A stretch of 50,405 nt of DNA, taken from UHGV virus genome UHGV-0169486. The stretch is one strand, 5' to 3'. The notes under the pieces are model-generated. The model had not been told where the DNA came from. It saw only the letters and a list, made by a program, of their open reading frames with translations, and did not search any database. This stretch comes from a virus. Shown one piece after another: positions 414-49,017 of this stretch. The position numbers and the translations under genes are program-made. How positions within the stretch are numbered: the first letter of the stretch is position 1; every line of letters starts with the position of its first letter.

Positions 414-1532
414 ATGTCACAAAGAAAGATCAGCGATGAGGAATTAATCGCTGAACATAACAGCGGCCTGACGTATAAACAGATCGCTGAGAAGTACGGC
501 ATGGCAAAACGCAACGTCGAGCGCCTGGGCGCACGGCTGGCGAAACGCGGTTTAATATCCACGCGCCGCGCGCCGGGTTTTGGTGTCAATGGTGAATCAT
601 TGCTCGTTGATAAAGATGGCAATGTAATCATGCGCTGGATTAAAACGGCCCGTGACCGTGAGGAAATGGAAAGGCTAATGCAGGCAGCTTGTGACGCATT
701 TACGGAAGAAATGCCGCGCGAGGAAGCCGTGCCAGTGCCGGAAATTGATTTTCAGAAAAGCCTGGCCCTTTATCCGGTATTCGATCTGCATATCGGGGCG
801 CTTGCGCATAAAGCTGAATGCGGAGAAAGCTACGACACCGGGATCGCTGAACGCGTGTTAAATGACTTCTTTGACTACGCTGTAGGCGCTGCACCAACGT
901 CTGAAAAAGCTGTATTGCTTCTCGGCGGTGATGTGCTTCACACGGACGGGCTATTACCAGTGACGCCATCAAGTAATCACGTCTTAGATTGCGATTCACG
1001 CTACGCAAAACTTGTTTATGTGGCGATCCGGTCGGTCCGGCGTGCGGTGGGGAAAATGTTGTTAAACCATAAGGACGTCGAGATCCAGGTGTTATCCGGC
1101 AATCACGATCAGTCGGGGATGATTTGGCTACGTGCGGCGCTGGCGGCTTTTTACGAAGATGAACCGCGCGTAACGGTTGATGTGTCCCCTGCTATCGTCC
1201 ACCACACACAATACGGAAAAACATTCCTTGCTTACCACCACGGACACACCATCAAAAAACCAGAAACCTTACTTGCTGCCTGTGTTTCTGACTGGCGGGA
1301 GGATTTCGGTAAATCGTCGTCAGTTTACGCTCATTGCGGACACTGGCATCACCAGCGGCTGATTGAATCATCGTTAGGCGTTGTCGAGTATCACGGAACG
1401 TTAGCTGGCAAAGATGCTTACTCGACGAATGGCGGCTGGCGTTCACGGCGGCTGGCGGCGGTGATTATTTACAGCCCGGCTCATGGAGAAATTGGGCGCT
1501 TTGTTTATTACCCTGAATATTCCATTTTGTAA
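414..1532 (+). CDS. HTH domain fused to calcineurin-like metallophosphoesterase
   Basis: Motifs DLHIG, GGDVLHTDG, GNHD, HHGH, GHWHH in canonical order; N-terminal HTH LTYKQIAEKYGMAKRNVERL; ATG 414 has GAGGAA RBS (track start 399 lacks one). Confidence 0.75.
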   Translation: MSQRKISDEELIAEHNSGLTYKQIAEKYGMAKRNVERLGARLAKRGLISTRRAPGFGVNGESLLVDKDGNVIMRWIKTARDREEMERLMQAACDAFTEEMPREEAVPVPEIDFQKSLALYPVFDLHIGALAHKAECGESYDTGIAERVLNDFFDYAVGAAPTSEKAVLLLGGDVLHTDGLLPVTPSSNHVLDCDSRYAKLVYVAIRSVRRAVGKMLLNHKDVEIQVLSGNHDQSGMIWLRAALAAFYEDEPRVTVDVSPAIVHHTQYGKTFLAYHHGHTIKKPETLLAACVSDWREDFGKSSSVYAHCGHWHHQRLIESSLGVVEYHGTLAGKDAYSTNGGWRSRRLAAVIIYSPAHGEIGRFVYYPEYSIL

Positions 1533-8728: not shown

Positions 8729-11700
8729 CCAGTATCCAAGTATTATCACGCCACCATTCGGCAGATTAACTCTAACACCGTTATTATTAAGAATTACGCG
8801 CCCGTCGCTCCTCGTCATGCTAAATGTTCCGCCGCCTTGAACAATAACACTACCTCTCACGGTAACGTTGTTAAATTCAGCTCTACCATCTTTATTAATC
8901 ATCCACCCTGCGGATCCTGACGCGTAGTTAGATGATTGTATCTGCTGTGCGATCTTAGCACTTGTGATTGTTGCGTCTTTGATCCATGCGTCGCGTATAT
9001 AGCAAGAGCCATTTTGAACGTAGAAAGGCGTTTGATATGTACCGTTTGCGGCAGTCATTAACACAAAGCGATCAACAAGGAAAATACACTGTGACTGAAA
9101 GTTAGTCCCGTCTCCAGTCAATCCAAGCGACATACCTGTAGCGTATTTCATGCCGTTGTTATCGGTGGCGAGCTTGATTGAATATGACGCATCAACGTTG
9201 CCTTTGAAATCGGTTAACGCTTTCGATGTTGTCTCGATCGCTGTTGTGTTCCCGTTAACGGTCACTTTCAGCTGATCAATTTTGGTTGATAATGCCTCGT
9301 CCGCCGTTGTCATGGCCTGCGACCATTCAGTGATGCTTGAGTTTACATCGTCGAAAGATGCCGATATTTGGACAAATTTTTCAGCACTTGATGCCTCGTG
9401 AGTAGCGAGCGCCGTTGATATATCTGTTATTTTTGCTGAAATATTTTCATTAATATTGGCTTCAAGTGATGCTATAGCTTCCGCGCGGGCCTGGGTTTCG
9501 TCCGCTATTGCTGTGTCGACCCTTGCTATTTCTGCTTTTGTTTTTGTCTGGCCTTTCCTGTATTTTGCCTCAATAACAGTGCTCATTTTACTTTGCGCTA
9601 TTGAGTTGTTGATAAGTGCAATCGAGGCGTTTTGCAGACTTGCTTTCGCCTGATCTATTTCGTCGCTGTTTTTATCAACCTCATTTTCAACAAGACCAAG
9701 CTCCGCACTGATACCTGATATTGCCTGAGCGCGCGCACTTGATTCGTCAGCGATAGCTTGATCCAGGCGGCTAACACTGGCATTTGTGCTATTTTCAAGC
9801 GTTGTTAAATCAGCTTTAACCTCTGTTATTGCGTCGCTTCTTGCCTGCATTTCATCTGATATTGCTTTATCGAGACGAGAAACGCTCGCATCAGTTTTGT
9901 TTTCCAGGCTGCTGATACTGGCGTTAACGTTGCTTATAGCCTCCGTTCTCGCCTGCGTTTCGGTTGCCATTGCTTTGTCTACTCGGGCTATTTCTCCTTT
10001 GATGTTTGAGTCCATCGTATTTATTTCGGCTGTGATGGTTTCCAGTGATTCCGCTGTCGCTTTTTTCTCCTCTGCGATAACGTTGTCGATGCGGTCAATC
10101 TGTGCCTTCGTTTCGTTGCGACCTTTCTTATATTGAGCGGTAAGAGTAACCCGCGTGTTAGTTTGAGCAAGCGAGTTATTGATCAGAGCAAGCGAAGCGT
10201 TTTGTAAACTTGCTTTTGTCTGTGCCAGTTCGTTGTTAACGTTTTCGTTTGATACCTCTAATGAGTCTATTCTTACCTCATGTTTGCCTATTCCATCGGC
10301 GTTTTCTTCGACTTTTTTATAAAGGTCTTCGGTGTCTTTTTTAAGTGTATCTGTGTCAGCTTTAAGGTCGTCGGTGGCTGCCTTAAGGTCGTCAGTAGCG
10401 GATTTAAGGTCGTTGGTCGCACTTTCTATAATATCAGTGCGATCGCCAAGATCTTTAATATCGCTAATCATCTCTTTGAATTGCTCTGATTCCATTACAT
10501 CCTTTGTAACGTAATCAGTGATTTCGTCAAAATCCTCTGTTGGCTTACCTGATGCCTCGACGAAATCAGACACACCAAAAGCATTACGAGTGCGAACATA
10601 AACGTAATAAGTGTGGCCCGTGTTCATGCCGCCAAAAGTCCACTGATAACCGCGCCCGGTAAACTGTGCCGACGTGGTTATTTTTGCCGGATCTGTGATC
10701 TGGTTTTCCCCTGCATAGTAGAATTCGTATGACGTATCGGTAGTAAGTGTGGTTTTGCTTATCGGGTACACGGTCGCCTGAAATACGCCGGGAACCCAAT
10801 TAACGCCGATCGGTGCTGCTGGCGCACCGATAACAAGGTCAACGATACTTTCTGCACCCTTCATGCCAGTATCATTTCTTCCGCGAACGCCTAAAGAATA
10901 CACGCCAGCTTCAATACCATAAAAATCATAACTATATTTCGTGGTTTCATAGCTTTTAACCACCGCACCATCTGCATTGTATATGCGGATCTCGAAGGTC
11001 ATGCGATGCGTAGTTGTCTGTGTTTCCCATGTAGCGCGGCATTGAACAGTCTCTGACGCAATGTTTATTACTTTCAGGTTTTCTATGTTCGGAACGCGGA
11101 AATGATTAAGCGTGTCGTTGTTGATTTCAAATATTGCGCCTTCATCGACTACCGCTTGTTTGTTCGGGTCGTGCTGCGCGGCCTCGATGGTGTACACGCT
11201 GTTGTTTTCAGTTTCGGCTACGCTGGTGATCCTGCATAAAACGGGTTTTGCTGCTTCGGTTGATACAGCAAAAACAGTCCCGTTCCGAATCCATGCCGGG
11301 GCCGCTGCCAGTGTGATTTTGTTCCCGTTAACACCAGTGATCTGATGTTTTTTAAATTTTCCATCGCTATCAAGAAGACTTATAGTGTCGCCAGCCGCAA
11401 TATATTCTGAATCGACCTTATCTACCGTTATCACTTTACCATTGTTCGCCACGATGCGACCGCCTAAGCGAGCGCCAGCGCGGTTATTGTCGAGGATCTC
11501 GATTATATCCCCTGGCGTAAAGTGAATTGCGTCACGCGCCATTTTAAACGTGAATTTTGACGGCTCGCGTTTTGCTGTTTCTATCAGCCATTTGCCCGCG
11601 CGGTGCGCTTGCCCGCGTGACGTACAGCCGAACGCCTCCATCGTGGTTTCGTTGTAACCATCGCGGGCGATTAGCTCATCATCTGCTACATACTCTTTTG

Positions 11701-14869: not shown

Positions 14870-14923
14870 TTTCTCACCTTGTCATTTTGTGATCTGCATC
14901 ACGCAAGATCATGCCAAAATGGA

Positions 14924-14952
14924 TTGATCCATATTTTTACAATATGTATATT
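14924..14952 (+). promoter_or_regulatory. sigma70-like promoter for plus-strand gene island A
   Basis: TTGATC - 17 nt - TATATT; overlaps conserved 14-mer TTTACAATATGTAT. Confidence 0.4.
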
Positions 14953-15216
14953 TTACTCAAACGAAGGGGAGTCAACAAAATGGCACAACTTTGAACAAGG
15001 TAGAACACTATGAGACCCGCAAAATACGCAGAGAAAGTTTTTGTTGAAGTGAAAGGCGACATGAAAAAATTTATGGATGTTCTTATCAAAGAGATGGGAA
15101 AACCGTTCCATATAGCCGAACGTCAGTATTACGCTTGCAAGGCTAATAGCTACAACAGATACGCATGACAATAAACACAAAGGTAACACCATGCAAAATA
15201 TCGTCTCGATGTATGG

Positions 15217-15543
15217 ATGGCAGGAAGTAAGGATTGGGAAGGTTACGGCTTGTATGATAGTCACGAAATGGCGATCGAGGAAGGTGAAAAACTTGTTCGA
15301 TTCTTCGGACGCGCCAGGGAATTTAAAATCATTCCAGTACAAATAGCGGATAAGGTGGAAGATATGAACCCGAAAGATATTAATGTTAACTTCAATGTTA
15401 ATTTTGCCAACTCTATGGATCAGGCTTGTCCTAGTGAAATACACGTAAAAGGTTTCCCGGCAGATGATCCGCAAGCAAAACGTGAATACGAAAAAGCGGC
15501 AAAAGATTTCTGTATCGACAACCTGGGAGCGTTCGGCAAATAA
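15217..15543 (+). CDS. hypothetical acidic protein (island A)
   Basis: ORF track; protein-like composition unlike the overlapping 224-aa antisense ORF; weak RBS. Confidence 0.4.
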   Translation: MAGSKDWEGYGLYDSHEMAIEEGEKLVRFFGRAREFKIIPVQIADKVEDMNPKDINVNFNVNFANSMDQACPSEIHVKGFPADDPQAKREYEKAAKDFCIDNLGAFGK

Positions 15544-15552
15544 GGTGGCAAT

Positions 15553-15801
15553 ATGACGCGGCGCAATCACGGTGACTATGTGTACACGTTGAAACAGGCC
15601 GCCCGCCTTATCGGTTATCATGAGCACGAATTTATTGATTTGCTGATTGAGCGCGGGGTTTTGTACCAGGTCTGTTTAACGCTGTACCCAAAAGCGAAAT
15701 ACCTACAGGAAAAGTTATTCATCATCATGACGGATGAAAACCAGGTAAACCATTCATTCGTCACTGATAAGGGATTGACATATTTGAAGGGGGCGTTATG
15801 A
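15553..15801 (+). CDS. hypothetical HTH-like small protein (island A)
   Basis: ORF track; AAGGTGG RBS; segment YTLKQAARLIGYHEHEFIDLLIERGVLY resembles a DNA-binding HTH. Confidence 0.5.
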   Translation: MTRRNHGDYVYTLKQAARLIGYHEHEFIDLLIERGVLYQVCLTLYPKAKYLQEKLFIIMTDENQVNHSFVTDKGLTYLKGAL

Positions 15802-17665: not shown

Positions 17666-20014
17666 TTATTTGCGGCGCGGTTGCAACATCCCGCCAGGTC
17701 TTTGCGATTCCCTTGTTATCATTTTCATTGCTACACGTTCCATTGTCTGTTCAAGTCTGCGGCTGTCTTCGTCACTAAATCCGTTTGTGGTTTGAATGTC
17801 GATGTAAACAGGCATACTGATACCGCCGCCGCCGCCGCCAATATCACGCCCCGGGATAACCCTGCCATTCTCGCCGGGGATCATGTATTGGTTGCCGTTA
17901 GACGTCTGGAATAGCTCCGGCCTGTTATGTTCCCCGACGCGGTACATATTGCCACCAATTACGCTACCACCATTAAAGCGCCCGCCGCCGAAAATGGATG
18001 TTGCCAGCGACGTGATCGCAGTAAGCGCCGCCGAACCAGCCGCCGCCCAGCTACCGCCAGTTGATGCAGCCGTTGCCGCCGCCGCCGGGGCCGCCGCCGC
18101 CGCGATGCTTCCCTGAGCGGCAACCGCGCTTGCCGTTGTACTTGCTTGAGTTGCCTTGCTTTGTGTTTCCATCATGATCTGATCTGCTATCCAGTCGGCT
18201 GCTATATCAGAAAGTCTGTTGCCAATATTCCCTAGTATATTGCTCCCTAAGTTAGCAAAAACATCGCTCAATGATTGAGTACCGTTAAGCAGGCCGACAA
18301 GCGCATTGCTCATACCACCTTTAAGGCCATTAACGCAATCACCGATCAGGCCGTTTGTCTGGCTTTGCGCCTGCCATTGCTCCCATTTCAGATCGCGGAT
18401 CTGTTGCTCATAGGCTAACAATGCCTGTTTCTGTTGCGCTTCGGTAGCGCCCAGGTCGATAAGCTTTTGCTTACGGACGGCCCATTCATCTTGTACCTGC
18501 TTAATAGGGTCAACCTCGCCTTTAAGCTGATTCATCGGGCTTACTATTTGCGCCCATTTATCACGCAATTCATCTACCTGAATTTGGGCTAATTCTTCAT
18601 CCCGTTCCTTAACTATCCCTTTTTGCGCGGCGCGGTACTCAAGGAGGGTGATTTTACCCTGGGCGAATGCAGCATCAATGGCCTTGCCGTTCTCTAACGC
18701 TTTGCGCATGGCGGCGGTGTCTTTATTGTACTGGTCAGAAACGCTTATACCCTTGTCACCAAGCGTATCCTCTTTGCTTTTCTTGCTGCCAGTCTTCTTA
18801 CCCTTTTTAGGCTTATCAACTGGCTTGTCGAATCCGGTGATCTTGCCGTCGTTGGCTTCTGCCTGTTTCTGCATAAACTCATCATAAGCGGCAGTCGCGT
18901 TTTTAATGTCGTTTGCAAAAGTCATGACTTTACCGACTGTAGGGCCGAATTTCTTCTCATTGTTGCTATTTAGTTCTTCCTTGCGCTTATCTACAACCTC
19001 CTTCATCCATTTGTAGGCGTCCATAAGTGCCTTGATTGGCGTCACCATTGCGATGATCTTCTCTGCCACCTCGCCAGCCTTCACAGCCACATCATCAAAC
19101 ATGTCGATGAATTCGCCACCAGCCGTTTTGAGTGTATCGAAGCAGGTTTTAGCGAATTTAGCGCCCTCACCTAACCCCTTAACGCCTTTTGTGATTAAGT
19201 CGATAGCTGAGACTACGCCATCTGATACGCCGAAAAGATCATCAAGCTGTTCAACAAGCCCCATGATTTCGACTTTAAGCTCATTGATAGCCATGCCGGA
19301 TGTGCGCGGCAACTGAGCAAACTGCTCGTTTGTTTCCTGCGTAGCCGCCTGGATTGCGTTAACCATCCTTTCTGCCGTGATCTTGCCGTCCAGCATTTCG
19401 GCGCGGAACTTGCCCATAGATAACCCCATCTGACGGGCCATTGTCTGTACGATGGTCGGGGTGTTTTCAAGTAGGCTGTTAAATTCTTCAGCACGCAGCA
19501 CGCCGCCGTCTATAGACTGGCGGAACTGGCGCATAGAGTTAGACATCTGTTCCGCTGATGCGCCGCCTAACGCCCCCATTTTCTGAATAGTGCCAACCAG
19601 GTTAAGTAATTGCCCTTCCGTAGCTGACGTGTTCTTCAGTGAGATGGCAAGACCTTGCCATAACTCGCCAGTATCCTTCAGGCTTTGCCCTGTTTCCCTG
19701 GATATTGCTTTCAGGCCGTCGAAAACCCGTCCGGCGGACTCCGCATCGCCCGTAAGCATTTTGATTTTTACGCGAAGCATTTTGGCCTGCTCTGCCATTT
19801 CCATAAACTGTCTAACGGCCTCGGCAGCAATTAGCAGATAGATAACCTTGGTCAGTGCTTTGATTGATGTTTTCAGTGTGTTTACCTGGCGATCTGCCTG
19901 TTTAGCACCGCGCTCTATACGGTCAAAGGCCTGGTCTGCCTGTCGTTGTGCTACAAGAAGTTGTCCTGTTTTTGCGTCAACTTCGTAATAAATTGTGCCT
20001 ACACTGGTAGCCAT
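17666..20014 (-). CDS. tail tape measure protein
   Basis: 782 aa, helical/coiled-coil composition, Ala/Gly-rich C-terminal region; located between chaperone and M; GAGG RBS. Confidence 0.9.
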   Translation of the reverse strand: MATSVGTIYYEVDAKTGQLLVAQRQADQAFDRIERGAKQADRQVNTLKTSIKALTKVIYLLIAAEAVRQFMEMAEQAKMLRVKIKMLTGDAESAGRVFDGLKAISRETGQSLKDTGELWQGLAISLKNTSATEGQLLNLVGTIQKMGALGGASAEQMSNSMRQFRQSIDGGVLRAEEFNSLLENTPTIVQTMARQMGLSMGKFRAEMLDGKITAERMVNAIQAATQETNEQFAQLPRTSGMAINELKVEIMGLVEQLDDLFGVSDGVVSAIDLITKGVKGLGEGAKFAKTCFDTLKTAGGEFIDMFDDVAVKAGEVAEKIIAMVTPIKALMDAYKWMKEVVDKRKEELNSNNEKKFGPTVGKVMTFANDIKNATAAYDEFMQKQAEANDGKITGFDKPVDKPKKGKKTGSKKSKEDTLGDKGISVSDQYNKDTAAMRKALENGKAIDAAFAQGKITLLEYRAAQKGIVKERDEELAQIQVDELRDKWAQIVSPMNQLKGEVDPIKQVQDEWAVRKQKLIDLGATEAQQKQALLAYEQQIRDLKWEQWQAQSQTNGLIGDCVNGLKGGMSNALVGLLNGTQSLSDVFANLGSNILGNIGNRLSDIAADWIADQIMMETQSKATQASTTASAVAAQGSIAAAAAPAAAATAASTGGSWAAAGSAALTAITSLATSIFGGGRFNGGSVIGGNMYRVGEHNRPELFQTSNGNQYMIPGENGRVIPGRDIGGGGGGISMPVYIDIQTTNGFSDEDSRRLEQTMERVAMKMITRESQRPGGMLQPRRK

Positions 20015-20164
20015 GATTTAACCTCATGCAAATGTGATCTATGCATCTATTTTATACAAAATGTCTTTACTTTAACGATACCGTTTTGTATAAATGATGT
20101 AGGGAAAGATAGAAGAGATGCAGGAAGGACGGATGTCCCGGAGGAAGTGAAAGAGGATAAGGAA

Positions 20165-39232: not shown

Positions 39233-39416
39233 CGCCCCGCTTATAGATATGCACTGGCTTAACAGGAATGGCAGGCAATTCGCCTTCATTTAACGCGCTT
39301 GCCATACCTAATATTAAACGCGCTTCCGCACCAGTAACTTTCTTACACCATGCGCCGCCTGTTTTGTCTTCAAATAAGATAACAGCGAACTGATCGTTTA
39401 TTTCCAGCTTATCCAT
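39216..39416 (-). CDS. hypothetical protein
   Basis: ORF track; directly downstream of Q. Confidence 0.5.
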   Translation of the reverse strand: MDKLEINDQFAVILFEDKTGGAWCKKVTGAEARLILGMASALNEGELPAIPVKPVHIYKRGDDENN

Positions 39417-40138
39417 TATTCACCCCGTGTCACTCGCTTGATTTCGCTTTCCGCGCGGGCTTCTTCTTTGAATAGCTCCGCTATGGCGTCCTCATAGAAA
39501 ACCCTGTATTTCTTCCACCATGTTGATCGGCTTACCGGGAAAACAAGCTGGTTAACAGCCTGCCGGACAAGATCTACAGGGAAACGCGAGTAGCCTCGCC
39601 CGCCGCAGTGCTGGCACGTTTTGAATACTGGCATTTCCGCCGCTTCGCTGGCTGTTTTATCCGGTATCTCGCCACTCCCCTTGCATTGTTTACAATGATT
39701 GCGAACCTTTCCATGCCCCTTGCATTTTTTGCAAAGATGTTTTTCTCCGTAGTCGTCAAACGTAAATTTATATCCGCCGCACTCCATACAAGTTTTTTCC
39801 GTCGCGGCGCTTTGGCAATAATCCCGAAACGCGAAAACGGCAACAAGAATAATAAGATCATTGCGTTGTTCTTCATTTAATTCCATCACATATTCGTAAT
39901 CTTTCGCCATAGCTCTTAAACGCTCTGTAAGCAATACTACAGCCCTGTGTTTTTCGGCTTGCGATAGCTCCATCTTCCCTAAAAAAGCACTATAGCCAAG
40001 CTCTACGCGCGATTGCGCCATACCCGCAGCGGTTAGCGCATCAGTCGTATTAAGCGCATCCGGGGATGTGCCCCGGCTTTCGTCTGATAATCGCGGTGAT
40101 TTGGGAAAGTGGAATTTCAGAATGGATTCTAAATTCAT
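39416..40138 (-). CDS. Q: late-gene antiterminator Q-like protein with Cys-rich insertion
   Basis: N-terminus MNLESILKFHFPKSPRLSDESRG...AAGMAQS recalled as similar to lambda Q; multiple CxxC pairs; GGGGGGA RBS. Confidence 0.75.
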   Translation of the reverse strand: MNLESILKFHFPKSPRLSDESRGTSPDALNTTDALTAAGMAQSRVELGYSAFLGKMELSQAEKHRAVVLLTERLRAMAKDYEYVMELNEEQRNDLIILVAVFAFRDYCQSAATEKTCMECGGYKFTFDDYGEKHLCKKCKGHGKVRNHCKQCKGSGEIPDKTASEAAEMPVFKTCQHCGGRGYSRFPVDLVRQAVNQLVFPVSRSTWWKKYRVFYEDAIAELFKEEARAESEIKRVTRGE

Positions 40139-40320
40139 TATTTCCCCCCGTAACGAGCAATAAGTTGTTTACGATCAGAAATAGACTGGACTAACTTTTT
40201 CTCAAGCTCTTTCAATGCAAGCAATTCGCGCATATGAAAAGCCTGGATTTGTCGGACTGTAGCTAAATCATGCTCATCGCGCTGAATATCTATTTGCAGA
40301 TCTTTAACTTCGTTTTTCAT
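40138..40320 (-). CDS. hypothetical coiled-coil small protein
   Basis: ORF track; TAATG coupling with Q start. Confidence 0.45.
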   Translation of the reverse strand: MKNEVKDLQIDIQRDEHDLATVRQIQAFHMRELLALKELEKKLVQSISDRKQLIARYGGK

Positions 40321-40724
40321 TGCTCACCCCACATATTAGTCGCGTATTCGTCAATATCCGGTAGTAGGTCGCCGCGTTCGCGGATCTTAATAAACAAGCG
40401 TCCGCCTTTTACCTTCCGGCAGCGGACAATTTTTATTGAGTCAATTTGTCCATCATCTTTCCAAAATCCGGCATAAGTAAGGCTGTCAAATAGGCATTTA
40501 GGGATATTATCAAGATCCCTGGTCCGGTTATCAGGCGGCGCGGCATAAATGGCGATTGCCAGTCGGCAAGACAGGTTAATGTCTAGATTTAATAATTCGA
40601 TGATGTCTTTTACTTGTTCCCGGTATTCCTTCCCCACTTCGCTGATATAGTGAAAACCCCGTGAATGTCGGTAATAGCGGTTATTCGATGGCGGGTAAGG
40701 CAGGCTAAAGGTATATTCATTCAT
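40317..40724 (-). CDS. rusA: RusA-family Holliday junction resolvase
   Basis: N-terminus SLPYPPSNNRYYRHSRG and DLDN motif recalled as matching RusA; ATGA overlap with NinG stop. Confidence 0.85.
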   Translation of the reverse strand: MNEYTFSLPYPPSNNRYYRHSRGFHYISEVGKEYREQVKDIIELLNLDINLSCRLAIAIYAAPPDNRTRDLDNIPKCLFDSLTYAGFWKDDGQIDSIKIVRCRKVKGGRLFIKIRERGDLLPDIDEYATNMWGEQ

Positions 40725-41326
40725 GCTGCCTTTCTCCTTAAGGCGTCCAATTTCGCCTGATAGATGTTTATTAGCTCCTTACATTCTGCGATCGTCCATT
40801 TGTGTGTATCGTTGTTGTTCTCCAGCGCAACCACCATTGCGAGGCCAATTTTTCGAATCAGCGCAGGGCGATACCCTCCGGTGTTTCCGTCTAATGTCTG
40901 GTTGCAGTGCCTGCATTGTTTATGGCAATTATCCTCGTTAAAGCGAAGGTGTCCGGCGGCGGCTACCGTCCTGTAATGGCCCGCATCCCACCCGCATTGC
41001 TCACCGTAGTAAGTCCCGCAAGATATACACGGCAATCGCGCGTCACGCTCGCGTATATAAGCGTTAAAAACGTTTTGCGCCTGTTTAATCCAGTAGCTAC
41101 GCGGATTTAACTGCTTCCGCTTCCGGTTTCGTTCTTCCCGCTGGCTATCACGGCGTTTCTTCCGTTCCATAGCCTTCATAGCCTTCTCACGGTCGCGGCA
41201 TAGCTGATCAAACTTCAGTTCTTCCAGACATTCATCGCTGCACCACGTCTGGTTGTGATATTTAGGCTCAAAAAAAACGCCGCAGCATTTGCAACGGCGT
41301 CTTATGGTTTTTTTAGGGTTCTGCAT
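40721..41326 (-). CDS. ninG: NinG/Rap-like recombination protein
   Basis: Recalled similarity to lambda NinG (RRCK..C, PRSYWIKQAQ, CISCGT, WDAGHYRT, FNE.N.HKQC); ATG 41326 with GGGGTGG RBS (track start 41416 is in an overlapping region). Confidence 0.8.
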   Translation of the reverse strand: MQNPKKTIRRRCKCCGVFFEPKYHNQTWCSDECLEELKFDQLCRDREKAMKAMERKKRRDSQREERNRKRKQLNPRSYWIKQAQNVFNAYIRERDARLPCISCGTYYGEQCGWDAGHYRTVAAAGHLRFNEDNCHKQCRHCNQTLDGNTGGYRPALIRKIGLAMVVALENNNDTHKWTIAECKELINIYQAKLDALRRKAA

Positions 41327-41340
41327 AAAAACCACCCCGA

Positions 41341-41517
41341 TTATTTTTGATTCTCTGTTTCGTTCCGCCTTTCGGCGTGTCCGGCCCTTAGCCAATGTTC
41401 TAAGCATTCGTTGCACTCGTTACAGCCTCCTTTCTTCGTGCTGCATACATTGCACATTGCACGCATGACGCTTTCTCTTTCATAGTCGTCATGCCATTGG
41501 TAATCATCAAAAGACAT
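41341..41517 (-). CDS. small Cys-rich (zinc ribbon-like) protein, 58 aa
   Basis: Own translation MSFDDYQWHDDYERESVMRAMCNVCSTKKGGCNECNECLEHW...; strong AAAAGGAGAGAG RBS. Confidence 0.4.
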   Translation of the reverse strand: MSFDDYQWHDDYERESVMRAMCNVCSTKKGGCNECNECLEHWLRAGHAERRNETENQK

Positions 41518-41543
41518 AATGCTCTCTCCTTTTCAGGTTATTT

Positions 41544-41579
41544 CTACGCATTTCAGCGATGCCGGATTTTTAAAGAGTA
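41544..41579 (-). promoter_or_regulatory. third boxA/boxB-like element (CTCTTTAAAAATCCGG plus short hairpin)
   Basis: 16-mer identical to the nutR-like boxA at 48877-48892, in sense orientation on minus strand; preceded by TTGTTC-16-TATACT promoter-like sequence. Confidence 0.4.
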
Positions 41580-41676
41580 TTTTGTTTGCTTGAAGTATAC
41601 AAAACGGATGCGCCAGAACAAGGCGAAAAGCGCCATTATGTGATGCATATCACGCTATGACGCCATTTTGTAAACT

Positions 41677-42441
41677 TTAGTCCGGTAAAACGCGGTTAAG
41701 CGTAGTCCGCGTGATGGCCCTGTCGTTAGCCAGGAATACAGCTCGTGCGAAGCCGCGCGGCGTTAGTGAGCGGATCATCTTAGTGCGCTTCGACTTTCCG
41801 CCTAACTTCGCGTGCTGCTTACTGTCTTCCCATTCATCCGGCATTGGTACAGGCCGGAATAGCGGCTGCTTAAATCCATTACCACACCAAATACATGTTT
41901 TCTTCGTGTAGGCATCGCGGTCGGCAATGTATTCCGGGAAAGCAGGATGTTTGTCATCTTCAGGCAGGTAGCCACCGTAAACGCAAGGATTGAAGATAAA
42001 ATCCGGTTTACGCCATAACGTTGACAGTGCGCCAACTGGATTTTCCACCATCCACGGCACGTTATACATATTCGCCAGTTTTTCTACAATTTTTGCGTTA
42101 TACGCCGCCTTTACCTGGAAGCCAGGATCTTTTTTCCGTTTATCAGCGAACCAACGAGCGCCTGATACGGCAAGATCATCACACGGAGGAAAGCCCAAGA
42201 TAATGTCAGGATCTGGATAAACAGACAATTCAGGGGAGAACATTACCAGGAAATGGCTGTCAATCCATACGTTAACATATTCAATATTTGGATGAATTAT
42301 TTTTACCCCGTCATAATCCCCGTGATTAGCGCCGTCATAGTTGAAGCAATAGCATTTATAACCAGCTTCCGCCCAATCTTTAACGGCGTACCCGCTTCCG
42401 TCGTACAGCGACCAGATAACCCAATTTCTAAGCCCGCTCAT
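41677..42441 (-). CDS. DNA methyltransferase, C5-cytosine-like motifs
   Basis: Motif I-like SLYDGSG, motif IV-like GFPPCDDLAVSGAR, motif VI ENV (WMVENPVG). Confidence 0.6.
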   Translation of the reverse strand: MSGLRNWVIWSLYDGSGYAVKDWAEAGYKCYCFNYDGANHGDYDGVKIIHPNIEYVNVWIDSHFLVMFSPELSVYPDPDIILGFPPCDDLAVSGARWFADKRKKDPGFQVKAAYNAKIVEKLANMYNVPWMVENPVGALSTLWRKPDFIFNPCVYGGYLPEDDKHPAFPEYIADRDAYTKKTCIWCGNGFKQPLFRPVPMPDEWEDSKQHAKLGGKSKRTKMIRSLTPRGFARAVFLANDRAITRTTLNRVLPD

Positions 42442-42785
42442 TTTCCACCCTCAAACGTGAAATAGCGGCGCATGATGATAGTGATCACCGTTACCGCTGC
42501 CATTTTTGAGATGAATTGAATAGCTGATATTTCCGGCATAAATGCCATAAACGATAGCGTGGGAAAAATTAACGCATCGCCAATGGCGGACGCTATATTT
42601 GCAGGCCAGCGTTTGGAATCGAAATCACCAGGTAGAACCCGGTAAACGCCGCCAGAAATAAGCGCACCGGAAACAACCGCGACGAATTCGAATTCCCGAT
42701 CCATTCCTCTAAAAACAGGTTTCGGCGTCTGCCATAGGTCTTTTATTTCTTTCGGCGTATGACTGCCGCCGTAATCATTTTTCAT
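42438..42785 (-). CDS. hypothetical protein (hydrophobic C-terminal half)
   Basis: ORF track; 4-nt overlap with downstream gene. Confidence 0.5.
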   Translation of the reverse strand: MKNDYGGSHTPKEIKDLWQTPKPVFRGMDREFEFVAVVSGALISGGVYRVLPGDFDSKRWPANIASAIGDALIFPTLSFMAFMPEISAIQFISKMAAVTVITIIMRRYFTFEGGK

Positions 42786-42794
42786 TGCGCCCCC

Positions 42795-43028
42795 TTAGAA
42801 ATAATCCTGCTCCGTCCCCCAGCGGTTATTCAGATACCCCACCAACCACACAAAACGCTCAATGCTGATTAGCGGGGCGACCTTGCGATAATGCTTGTCG
42901 AGTATCAGCCGCGTGGCTTTATCGCTATATCCGTTTCTTTCCACCTCTGTCTTGCAGGCAGAAAGCGCCGCCCGCGCGGCAGTTTTAACGGCATTAAATT
43001 GCGGCTCTGACAGGTTGAATAAAGCCAT
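42795..43028 (-). CDS. hypothetical protein
   Basis: ORF track. Confidence 0.5.
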   Translation of the reverse strand: MALFNLSEPQFNAVKTAARAALSACKTEVERNGYSDKATRLILDKHYRKVAPLISIERFVWLVGYLNNRWGTEQDYF

Positions 43029-43971: not shown

Positions 43972-44069
43972 CTTGTTTTCTCCGCGCCGTAAACCTTTCG
44001 ATTTCTTCTTACAAAACGGATATGCGATCACAGCACAAAATGTATATTTATGTGATCGCGATCACCCTG

Positions 44070-47484: not shown

Positions 47485-47775
47485 TTATCTGTAGCGTACT
47501 TTATCCAGGGGTTTTTCCCCTAGACTACGCGGTTGTGTTGCGTGGTAGTAATTGCCGCTTTCGTTTTCCGCATACCATTTTGCCGCACCTTTGCGATGCT
47601 CTTTAATGCCATTCGGTTTGCATCTTTCTACGTTTGCAAAACGAATAGCTTTATCAACATTGTCAGTTTTATTGATTGCAGGTGATGATTTTCTTTCGTT
47701 TTCTCTTTTTATTCTTCTGCGTTCCCTGGCATTTATTTTGCTATCACATTTGCCATACATAATTGTTACGGTCAT
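47485..47775 (-). CDS. N-like transcription antitermination protein (arginine-rich motif)
   Basis: First gene downstream of PL-like promoter and boxA/boxB; ARM-like NARERRRIKRENERK; AAGGAG RBS. Confidence 0.55.
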   Translation of the reverse strand: MTVTIMYGKCDSKINARERRRIKRENERKSSPAINKTDNVDKAIRFANVERCKPNGIKEHRKGAAKWYAENESGNYYHATQPRSLGEKPLDKVRYR

Positions 47776-47831: not shown

Positions 47832-47869
47832 GCCGCACTTCCAGCGGCTGACCAGATTGTTAAAGAGCA
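47832..47869 (-). promoter_or_regulatory. nutL-like site (boxA TGCTCTTTAACAA plus boxB-like hairpin)
   Basis: boxA matches recalled rrn/lambda boxA consensus; hairpin GCCGC-TGGAAGT-GCGGC; between PL-like promoter and N-like gene. Confidence 0.6.
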
Positions 47870-48029: not shown

Positions 48030-48058
48030 GGCAAAGAAAAGCCGCCATTCGGCGGCTA
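48030..48058 (-). terminator. rho-independent terminator downstream of repressor gene
   Basis: GCCGCC-attc-GGCGGC hairpin with T-run on minus strand. Confidence 0.55.
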
Positions 48059-48675: not shown

Positions 48676-48874
48676 GAGCTGCTTTGCTAAGTCATACCAT
48701 TTGTTTTCATGTCGCTACCCTATAACCTCAAAAGTTTGATACAAGTCACAAAATGTATTTTTCAAAGCCTTGATTTAAAAACTCCATTCTGTAAACTTGC
48801 AGACAAGGTAAGGCCATAGTTGCAAAGACGCAAAAAAAAAGATAACGGAATAGCACAAAAAGGCGCATACCTCA

Positions 48875-48908
48875 TGCTCTTTAAAAATCCGGTGTCGCTG
48901 CGAAGCGA
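48875..48908 (+). promoter_or_regulatory. nutR-like site (boxA TGCTCTTTAAAAA plus hairpin TCGCT-GCGA-AGCGA)
   Basis: boxA-like sequence and tetraloop hairpin in PR leader, upstream of first rightward gene. Confidence 0.5.
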
Positions 48909-49017
48909 AAAACAAATATCACGCAACGGCGGGATCTGTTGAGCGGTCAGTCACTGCTATCTAATGCTAATGGGATGCCCGCCCGCGCGTTCACTCTAAC
49001 CATAGGAGAAAAACAAG

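Follow-up and report, generated by a model that had tools for sequence, protein, structure and literature searches.

The question raised by the junction between a cytosine methyltransferase gene and a ninF-like gene in the virus genome considered here (UHGV-0169486; 'the window' is the whole stretch analysed, 50,405 nucleotides) is what an antitermination signal is doing so deep in an early operon, and whether transcription enters the operon at that point as well as passing through it. The initial annotation had suggested that the junction carries a third repressor- and N-responsive early promoter feeding the Q operon. The answer developed here is that the signal is the counterpart of the nutR2 site of phage mEp021 and that the junction probably has, in addition, a weak promoter of its own which feeds nutR2 besides the transcripts arriving from PR; repressor control through the sequence proposed for it is another matter.

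Over 40300-43000, seven mEpimmI phages (mEp021, mEp010, mEp013, mEp044, mEp515, mEp554 and MagusPhagus) match the window at 85-93% identity, as do prophages carried by 35 of 5,426 complete E. coli genomes; the 173-nt intergenic segment, searched by itself, is present only in those seven phages. The window is a mEp021-like coliphage of the mEpimmI group whose early genes occupy the minus strand. Gene order on that strand was derived from the mEp021 record and Pfam scans (Table 1). It runs from the gene for the N-like Gp17 homolog, whose arginine-rich motif is RERRRIKRENERK, through recombination and methyltransferase genes to the nutR2 region and then the ninF-like ORF, the first gene past nutR2; ninG, rusA and the Q-type antiterminator gene (39416-41326, minus strand) are all downstream of nutR2. 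The leftward operon is on the plus strand from ~48770; its genes include one for an HTH protein (49018) and one for replication (49276). The t1 homolog at 48040-48057 could terminate in both directions because T runs are present on both of its sides. A plus-strand 50-aa ORF (41491-41643) was rejected as a gene, its frame being broken by indels in relatives, and an Rfam search gave no match at gathering score.

Table 1. Features of the window relevant to the nutR2 junction, with positions counted from the first letter of the window
Feature	Position	Strand	Remarks
Q-type antiterminator gene	40138-39416	-	Pfam Antiterm PF03589, 5e-29
rusA	40724-40317	-	Pfam RusA 7e-16
ninG	41326-40721	-	Pfam NinG 2e-64
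Intrinsic-terminator-like hairpin + U8	41270-41303	-	Terminator scan; within first 60 nt of ninG coding sequence
ninF-like Cys-rich ORF, 58 aa	41341-41517	-	ORF list; mEp021 homolog annotated putative NinF
nutR2	41547-41579	-	boxA TACTCTTTAAAAATCCGG 41579-41562, 3-nt linker, boxB CGC-U-GAAA-U-GCG 41558-41547
Candidate sigma-70 promoter TTGTTC-16-TATACT	41594-41621	-	Predicted start near A41587
Inverted copy TACAAAACGG (TACAAAATGG in most relatives)	41598-41607	+	Overlaps spacer and -10 of candidate promoter
t4 hairpin, 15-bp stem then UUUU	41626-41663	-	Homolog of TERM_4 of mEp021, same place
Upstream TACAAAATGG copy at nutR2 junction	41663-41672	-	Conserved in relatives
Gp17 homolog, N-like antiterminator gene	47485-47775	-	96 aa; 94% identical to mEp021 Gp17
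nutR1 boxB GCCGC-UGGAAGU-GCGGC	47848-47832	-	Hairpin predicted by folding
nutR1 boxA TGCTCTTTAACAATCTGG	47869-47852	-	16-mer 2 mismatches from nutR2 copy
PR TTGACT-17-TATATT	47940-47912	-	Strongest promoter-like site in window, rank 1 by matrix
t1 homolog (mEp021), GC-rich hairpin	48040-48057		Between repressor gene and PR; T runs both sides
Repressor gene	48675-48064	-	HTH_3 and Peptidase_S24 domains
Putative PL module and nutL	48735-48908	+	Degenerate palindrome 48735-48750; TTGATT-16-TAAACT 48770-48797
nutL boxA	48875-48892	+	16-mer exact vs nutR2
nutL boxB UCGCU-GCGA-AGCGA	48895-48908	+	Folds as predicted
Clear sites of the recurring motif	386, 1522, 16472, 20055/20081, 41598/41663, 44011/44035, 47475, 47942, 48748/48784		Both orientations

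The third boxA/boxB-like element of the initial annotation is real, and is the published nutR2. Its 16-mer boxA core, CTCTTTAAAAATCCGG (41577-41562, minus strand), is repeated exactly on the plus strand (48877-48892), in the orientation of the leftward operon, and with 2 mismatches on the minus strand (47852-47867); when up to 3 mismatches are allowed the window has 3 matches as against 0.6 expected, and 3 of 100 shuffles reach as many. The recurrence had been noticed with the labels interchanged, the copy assigned to the PR leader being that of nutL and the one assigned to nutL being that of nutR1. A short CGCTG-containing hairpin was also described after each boxA, and is present 3′ of all three. 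BoxA has the consensus YGCTCTTTA, or TGCTCTTTAACAA in rrn operons, and in lambda it is CGCTCTTA. The boxA of nutR1 (TGCTCTTTAACAAT), of the rrn type TGCTCTTTAACAA, is identical to the E. coli rRNA operon consensus and nearer to it than is lambda's own boxA; the boxA of nutR2, TGCTCTTTAAAAA in relatives and TACTCTTTAAAAA in the window, matches the consensus. A G to A change at 41578 (minus strand), by which TACTCTTT replaces the TGCTCTTT of relatives, occurs in the window only, out of the 35 distinct copies that the first family alignment contains.

In 34 distinct relatives the nutR2 boxA TGCTCTTTAAAAATCCGG is invariant except for its first two bases, and its boxB, CGC-U-GAAA-U-GCG, is invariant; the boxB closing pair covaries (GU 26, AU 4, CG 3). 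Mere chance resemblance, with the element lacking function, hardly deserves credence. A 50-kb sequence should by our reckoning contain about 0.6 exact 16-mer repeats, and the boxB hairpin, part of the minimum-energy fold at -3.2 kcal/mol, is alone no stabler than shuffled sequence (z = 0.65), but the invariance just described, the presence of exactly three boxA copies in both the window and mEp021, each in a leader region, and the experimental work on mEp021 cited in PMC11893012 all speak against it. What characterizes a nut site is found here: a boxA, a boxB with a purine-rich loop 3 nt after it, and, in the genome of the same phage, a gene for a cognate protein with an arginine-rich motif. 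PR is 6.3 kb upstream on the same strand and a terminator-like hairpin is downstream, positions from which transcription across the element would be expected.

In mEp021 itself (L001) the boxA copies are at 917-933 (minus), 2157-2173 and 10104-10120. From nutR1 to nutR2 is therefore 7,947 bp, and the gene immediately ahead of nutR2 is that for the cytosine methyltransferase. Its nut system is reportedly the subject of a study by Valencia-Toxqui et al. (2023, Arch Virol 168:92), whose abstract is said to give '>7.9 kbp' for nutR2, a figure that 7,947 bp fits. According to PMC11893012, the N-like Gp17 of mEp021 has three nut sites as its targets: nutL and nutR1, which are upstream of the repressor gene and of gp17 respectively, and nutR2, which is downstream of the cytosine methyltransferase gene. 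The three are reported to be conserved in 48 genomes; N- and Nus-dependent read-through in vivo is there attributed, through cited work, to mEp021 nutR2. The 41579-41547 element is almost certainly the ortholog of that site, to judge by sequence and position, and the third nut site is therefore already known. For mEp021-type phages it is already published, and its presence confirms that the window belongs to the group.

Less straightforward is whether transcription also starts at the junction. The TTGTTC (41621-41616), the 16-nt spacer, the TATACT (41599-41594) and the CTCTTTAAAAATCCGG that follows, all pointed out in the initial annotation, are present on the minus strand, and the predicted start, A41587, is 10 nt before the 16-mer core of boxA. 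As a sigma-70 promoter the candidate agrees with consensus at 8 of 12 positions, 3 of 6 in its -35, which puts it below threshold and leaves it unlisted in the consensus scan, itself yielding no excess of promoter-like sites over shuffles. By a rough position-weight matrix it ranks 58 among 100,740 positions. PR ranks 1, and 29 is the rank of TTGATT-16-TAAACT, the top plus-strand promoter candidate upstream of nutL, which we infer to be PL. No candidate on its strand of the intergenic region scores higher than TTGTTC-16-TATACT, and an equally good site has a ~9% chance of occurring in a 163-nt intergenic strand.

None of 34 distinct relatives departs from TTGT in the -35 or from TATACT, and in the variable stretch 3′ of the t4 hairpin TTGT is the sole invariant part. 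It is followed by 8-9 variable positions of fixed length and then by the invariant block GTATCC(A/G)TTTTGTATACTTCAA; spacer length is constant in 33 of the 34, the exception being a single 1-nt deletion. An invariant TTGT, a variable spacer of fixed length and an invariant block form, as read from the alignment, the pattern expected of a -35, a spacer and a -10.

The unit is also not alone, with ~75 nt of it aligning both with PL and with a unit at 44066-44006, and the three promoter-nut units aligning with one another. The order shared by the nutR2, PL and 44k units is a palindrome, 17 nt (18-19 nt at PL), TTGnnn, a 16-nt spacer whose end reads TCC(A/G)TT(T/C)TG, and TA(T/A)ACT. Judged by these alignments, the 75-nt nutR2 module is paralogous to PL and to the 44066-44006 module. 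The latter (44006-44066, minus strand) is a third promoter-like cassette, situated between two early genes, spaced by 17 nt and 16 nt as in the nutR2 unit and with no nut site after it; its hexamers are the degenerate CTGTGA and TAAGAA in the window and TTGTGA-16-TAAACT in relatives. In one relative (L074) the gene upstream of nutR2 differs and the module is kept, homology starting ~20 nt before the first TACAAAATGG copy; it follows that cassette and nin genes travel together.

A functional local promoter upstream of nutR2 thus seems the probable reading of the conservation and paralogy, to be held with some reserve. Counting against it are the weak hexamers, the chance of such a site arising fortuitously, the putative nature of PL itself, the window's own A for the otherwise conserved G in boxA, and the -10 block, which, though conserved, could be a protein-binding site because the TACAAAATGG motif also sits at non-promoter places, for instance before the start codons at 386 and 1522. 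The obvious competitor, which we consider the weaker and rather improbable, is that nutR2 has no promoter and is only a booster or re-loading site in a long PR transcript, where polymerase modified at nutR1 that had passed t2, t3 and t4 would be modified anew, or unmodified read-through captured. That the -35-like and -10-like blocks would then have some other use, such as binding a protein, is similarly rather doubtful. PR, nutR1 and nutR2 do lie on one strand with no opposing genes between them, the -10 block does coincide with a motif found elsewhere at non-promoter positions, and the published description is of one Gp17 system for three nut sites with no promoter mentioned. In the 2023 abstract nutR2 is said to be reached by polymerase coming from nutR1. 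The competitor, however, leaves unexplained why an isolated invariant TTGT should stand 16 nt upstream of TATACT in a variable stretch, and why the whole module should be paralogous to the only plausible leftward promoter. Moreover, few unmodified transcripts would reach a nut site that directly follows a terminator hairpin. Of the original proposal of a third promoter feeding the Q operon, the promoter survives as a probable one, on its invariant -35 TTGT and -10, the fixed length of the spacer between them and the kinship to PL; its repressor-operator component does not.

That component depended on the 9-mer ATATCACGC, near nut sites, and on TATCACG, taken together as half-sites of an immunity-repressor operator that would put a third early promoter under repressor control. 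Exact copies of ATATCACGC are at 17841, 41647 and 48916, 3 as against 0.59 expected, with 2 of 100 shuffles reaching 3; one copy is near nutL, and the 7-mer is inside the PR spacer. With one mismatch allowed, though, the 22 matches are not above chance (14.9 +/- 4). The copy at the junction (41647-41655, plus strand) is an arm of the 15-bp-stem t4 hairpin, which is also a CRP-like palindrome, ~25 nt upstream of the -35 and outside the core promoter; that at 48916 is downstream of the nutL boxB and no dyad partner was found for it; the third, at 17841, is inside a 782-aa ORF. Where the PR spacer has TATCACG the family consensus is TGTTTTACGG, and most relatives differ from the window though all share one immunity. 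The operator reading of ATATCACGC is on these grounds rejected, and we regard it as very improbable. Dyad sites overlapping a core promoter and conserved within the immunity group, as for lambda-type CI operators, were not found among the ATATCACGC copies. Nor does the palindrome qualify as an immunity operator, being absent from PR.

The t4 stem, to which the 41647 copy belongs, reads GGCGUCAU(U/A)G(C/U)GUGAU, then a 4-nt loop, AUCACAUAAUGGCGC and UUUU, with a fold energy of -20 to -23 kcal/mol in relatives. The window variant is weaker, having alone among 35 distinct copies a T to A change at 41656 (minus strand) in the stem, which shifts the predicted fold. Across the alignment 94.9% of t4 cells are paired, with no double compensatory change and with one pair that is C-A in 21 of the 34 sequences. 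Pairing in RNA of the early sense is favoured by two G-U pairs. Divergence is too low for covariation to prove the stem, no pair having changed on both sides. The U tract is variable (3-5 nt) and t4 is unlisted in the terminator scan; in the mEp021 literature it is a predicted terminator only (PMC11893012). A GGCG-CTTTT-CGCC mini-hairpin was also considered as a terminator and set aside, its 3′ arm varying without compensation.

The top of t4 (41654-41639) reads CGTGA-TATGCA-TCACA, which agrees with the CRP core TGTGA-N6-TCACA at 9 of 10 positions; the core is perfect (10/10) in 13 of 34 relatives and the N6, or loop, is variable. From the palindrome to the -35 there are 17 nt, and the centre of the site is at about -59.5 from the predicted start (-61.5 at lac P1). 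Binding of CRP to the palindrome is, on this resemblance, a possibility that we hold to be somewhat on the doubtful side. In the window GTGAT-N4-ATCAC is over-represented at up to one mismatch, with 9 matches as against 1.5 expected and none of 100 shuffles reaching that number. Its exact copies (14889-14902, 41640-41653 and 44052-44065) are all in regulatory spacers, and a degenerate copy is at 48735-48750. Each exact copy is upstream of a promoter-like element. At 14924-14952 (plus strand) this is a strong PR-like promoter, CCAAAATGGATTGATC-17-TATATT, with the CRP-like palindrome upstream, which faces small plus-strand ORFs (15010-15168, 15217-15543 and 15553-15801) within the minus-strand tail gene block; 14888-15801 looks like a moron cluster, and an overlapping 224-aa minus-strand ORF looks spurious.

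If a repressor does act at the junction, TACAAAATGG is regarded as a better operator candidate than ATATCACGC. At up to one mismatch it gives 15 matches as against 4.6 +/- 2 expected, which none of 100 shuffles reach. Three of 18 core matches are simply an A-rich ribosome-site spacer followed by ATG, and 13 clear sites are left. Their form is (A)GT(A/T)TACAAAA(T/C)G(G/T)A; they are mostly intergenic and touch the core of the PR, PL, nutR2 and 44k units. The motif abuts the PR -35, overlaps the PL -10, brackets the nutR2 junction as an inverted pair, occurs twice in the 44k unit and forms another inverted pair at 20055-20090. Reverse-complemented, the family consensus at the nutR2 -10, ATCCATTTTGTATAC, gives exactly the 15-mer GTATACAAAATGGAT abutting the PR -35. 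Its occurrence in both orientations and directly ahead of start codons, at 386 and 1522, is inconsistent with its being a mere -10 element. A long-range RNA stem between the two junction copies was similarly rejected: 98.7% are paired, with no compensatory change and with uncompensated changes in three relatives. A DNA-level site is likelier than an RNA stem because compensatory changes are lacking and because elsewhere single copies of the motif are found. Upstream of the 782-aa minus-strand gene the spacer contains a near-perfect inverted pair, TTTATACAAAATGT-N16-CCGTTTTGTATAAA (20048-20096), with promoter-like -10 boxes facing both ways. That the motif is the repressor operator is nevertheless a tentative suggestion, and rather unlikely. 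The same low standing is given to the fuller idea of one cassette repeated at PL, at 44066-44006 and at nutR2, in which a CRP-type palindrome is followed after 17 nt by a weak -35, and a 15-nt candidate operator overlaps the 16-nt spacer and the -10. Were it true, Q would gain, besides the PR route, a second entry, dependent on Gp17 and sensitive both to catabolite status and to the repressor, and this second entry point would explain why the mEp021-type group needs a third nut site.

Consequences of loading at nutR2 depend on what lies ahead. Thirty nt into ninG is GACGCCGUUGCAAAUGCUGCGGCG followed by U8, a hairpin of -17.2 kcal/mol (z = -3.45) that is unannotated in mEp021. Among 24 distinct relatives its variation is limited to A/G in the loop and to A/C and G/A in the weak A-U stem base; the GC-rich stem core and the U8 are invariant. 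Neighbouring synonymous sites vary, and invariance in that setting points to selection on RNA or DNA, not on protein. We lean slightly toward a terminator that is overridden through nutR2. Both this terminator and the local promoter are predictions, with no description in the accessible literature.

On the favoured reading, of nutR2 with its own weak promoter, polymerase moving in the early sense would encounter the end of the cytosine methyltransferase gene, t4 with its CRP-consensus palindrome, the weak sigma-70 promoter, boxA, boxB and ninF. RNA across boxA and boxB would recruit Gp17 and host Nus factors onto RNA polymerase, and the modified polymerase would ignore terminators, the ninG-internal hairpin and its U8 in particular, and continue into ninG, rusA and Q. 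There would be two feeds: PR transcripts modified at nutR1, 6.3 kb upstream, and reading through t4, and transcripts started at the local promoter. Unmodified transcripts would be stopped by the ninG-internal hairpin after ninF, so that expression of ninG, rusA and Q would depend on Gp17 loading at nutR2. The analysis shows the sequence elements with their conservation and paralogy, and the literature supplies the action of Gp17 at nutR2; promoter activity, the terminator function of the ninG-internal hairpin and any input from CRP or repressor are what we infer. The initial annotation contrasted the layout with that of lambda, where Q is reached from PR. That contrast falls away: Q is on the same strand as PR and downstream of it, and therefore reachable from PR as in lambda. 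What the layout adds to the PR route, without replacing it, is a nut site and probably a promoter as well. The mEp021-type group is common in the gut and the third nut site is its published peculiarity; an internal promoter with a conserved ninG terminator would account for a nut site at a depth of 6-8 kb in an operon. If CRP does bind the palindrome, expression of Q, the late-gene activator, would be linked to host physiology.

The nearest comparison is with mEp021, which has the same three nut sites, a cognate Gp17 that is 94% identical, and a nutR2 with the same boxA core, the same boxB sequence and the same place between the cytosine methyltransferase gene and ninF. The window differs in having TACTCTTT for TGCTCTTT in boxA, in the T-to-A change that weakens t4, and in the distance between nutR1 and nutR2, 6.3 kb as against 7.9 kb; a local promoter upstream of nutR2 is not mentioned in the accessible literature. 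With nutL and nutR of lambda and P22 there is in common a boxA and, after it, a short hairpin whose purine-rich loop is GNRA-like, and with their N the reading of RNA by a small arginine-rich-motif protein and dependence on Nus factors (PMC11893012). Differences are that the boxB stem here is 3-4 bp with U-U closure, that the N-like gene is in the same operon as Q, and that the repressor gene is between PL and PR. There are also three sites here instead of two, with a boxA nearer to the rRNA operon consensus TGCTCTTTAACAA.

A different type of parallel is provided by lac P1, a class I CRP-dependent promoter, in which a CRP site centred at -61.5 has a 17-nt gap between its core and the -35, and the promoter an 18-nt spacer. 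In promoters of this class the CRP site may also be centred near -71.5, -82.5 and so on. Shared with the nutR2 unit are the TGTGA-N6-TCACA core, the 17 nt and a weak -35. The spacer here is 16 nt, not 18 nt, and the site is centred at about -59.5 rather than -61.5; further, the CRP site here is putative, and its palindrome doubles as the top of a terminator-type hairpin.
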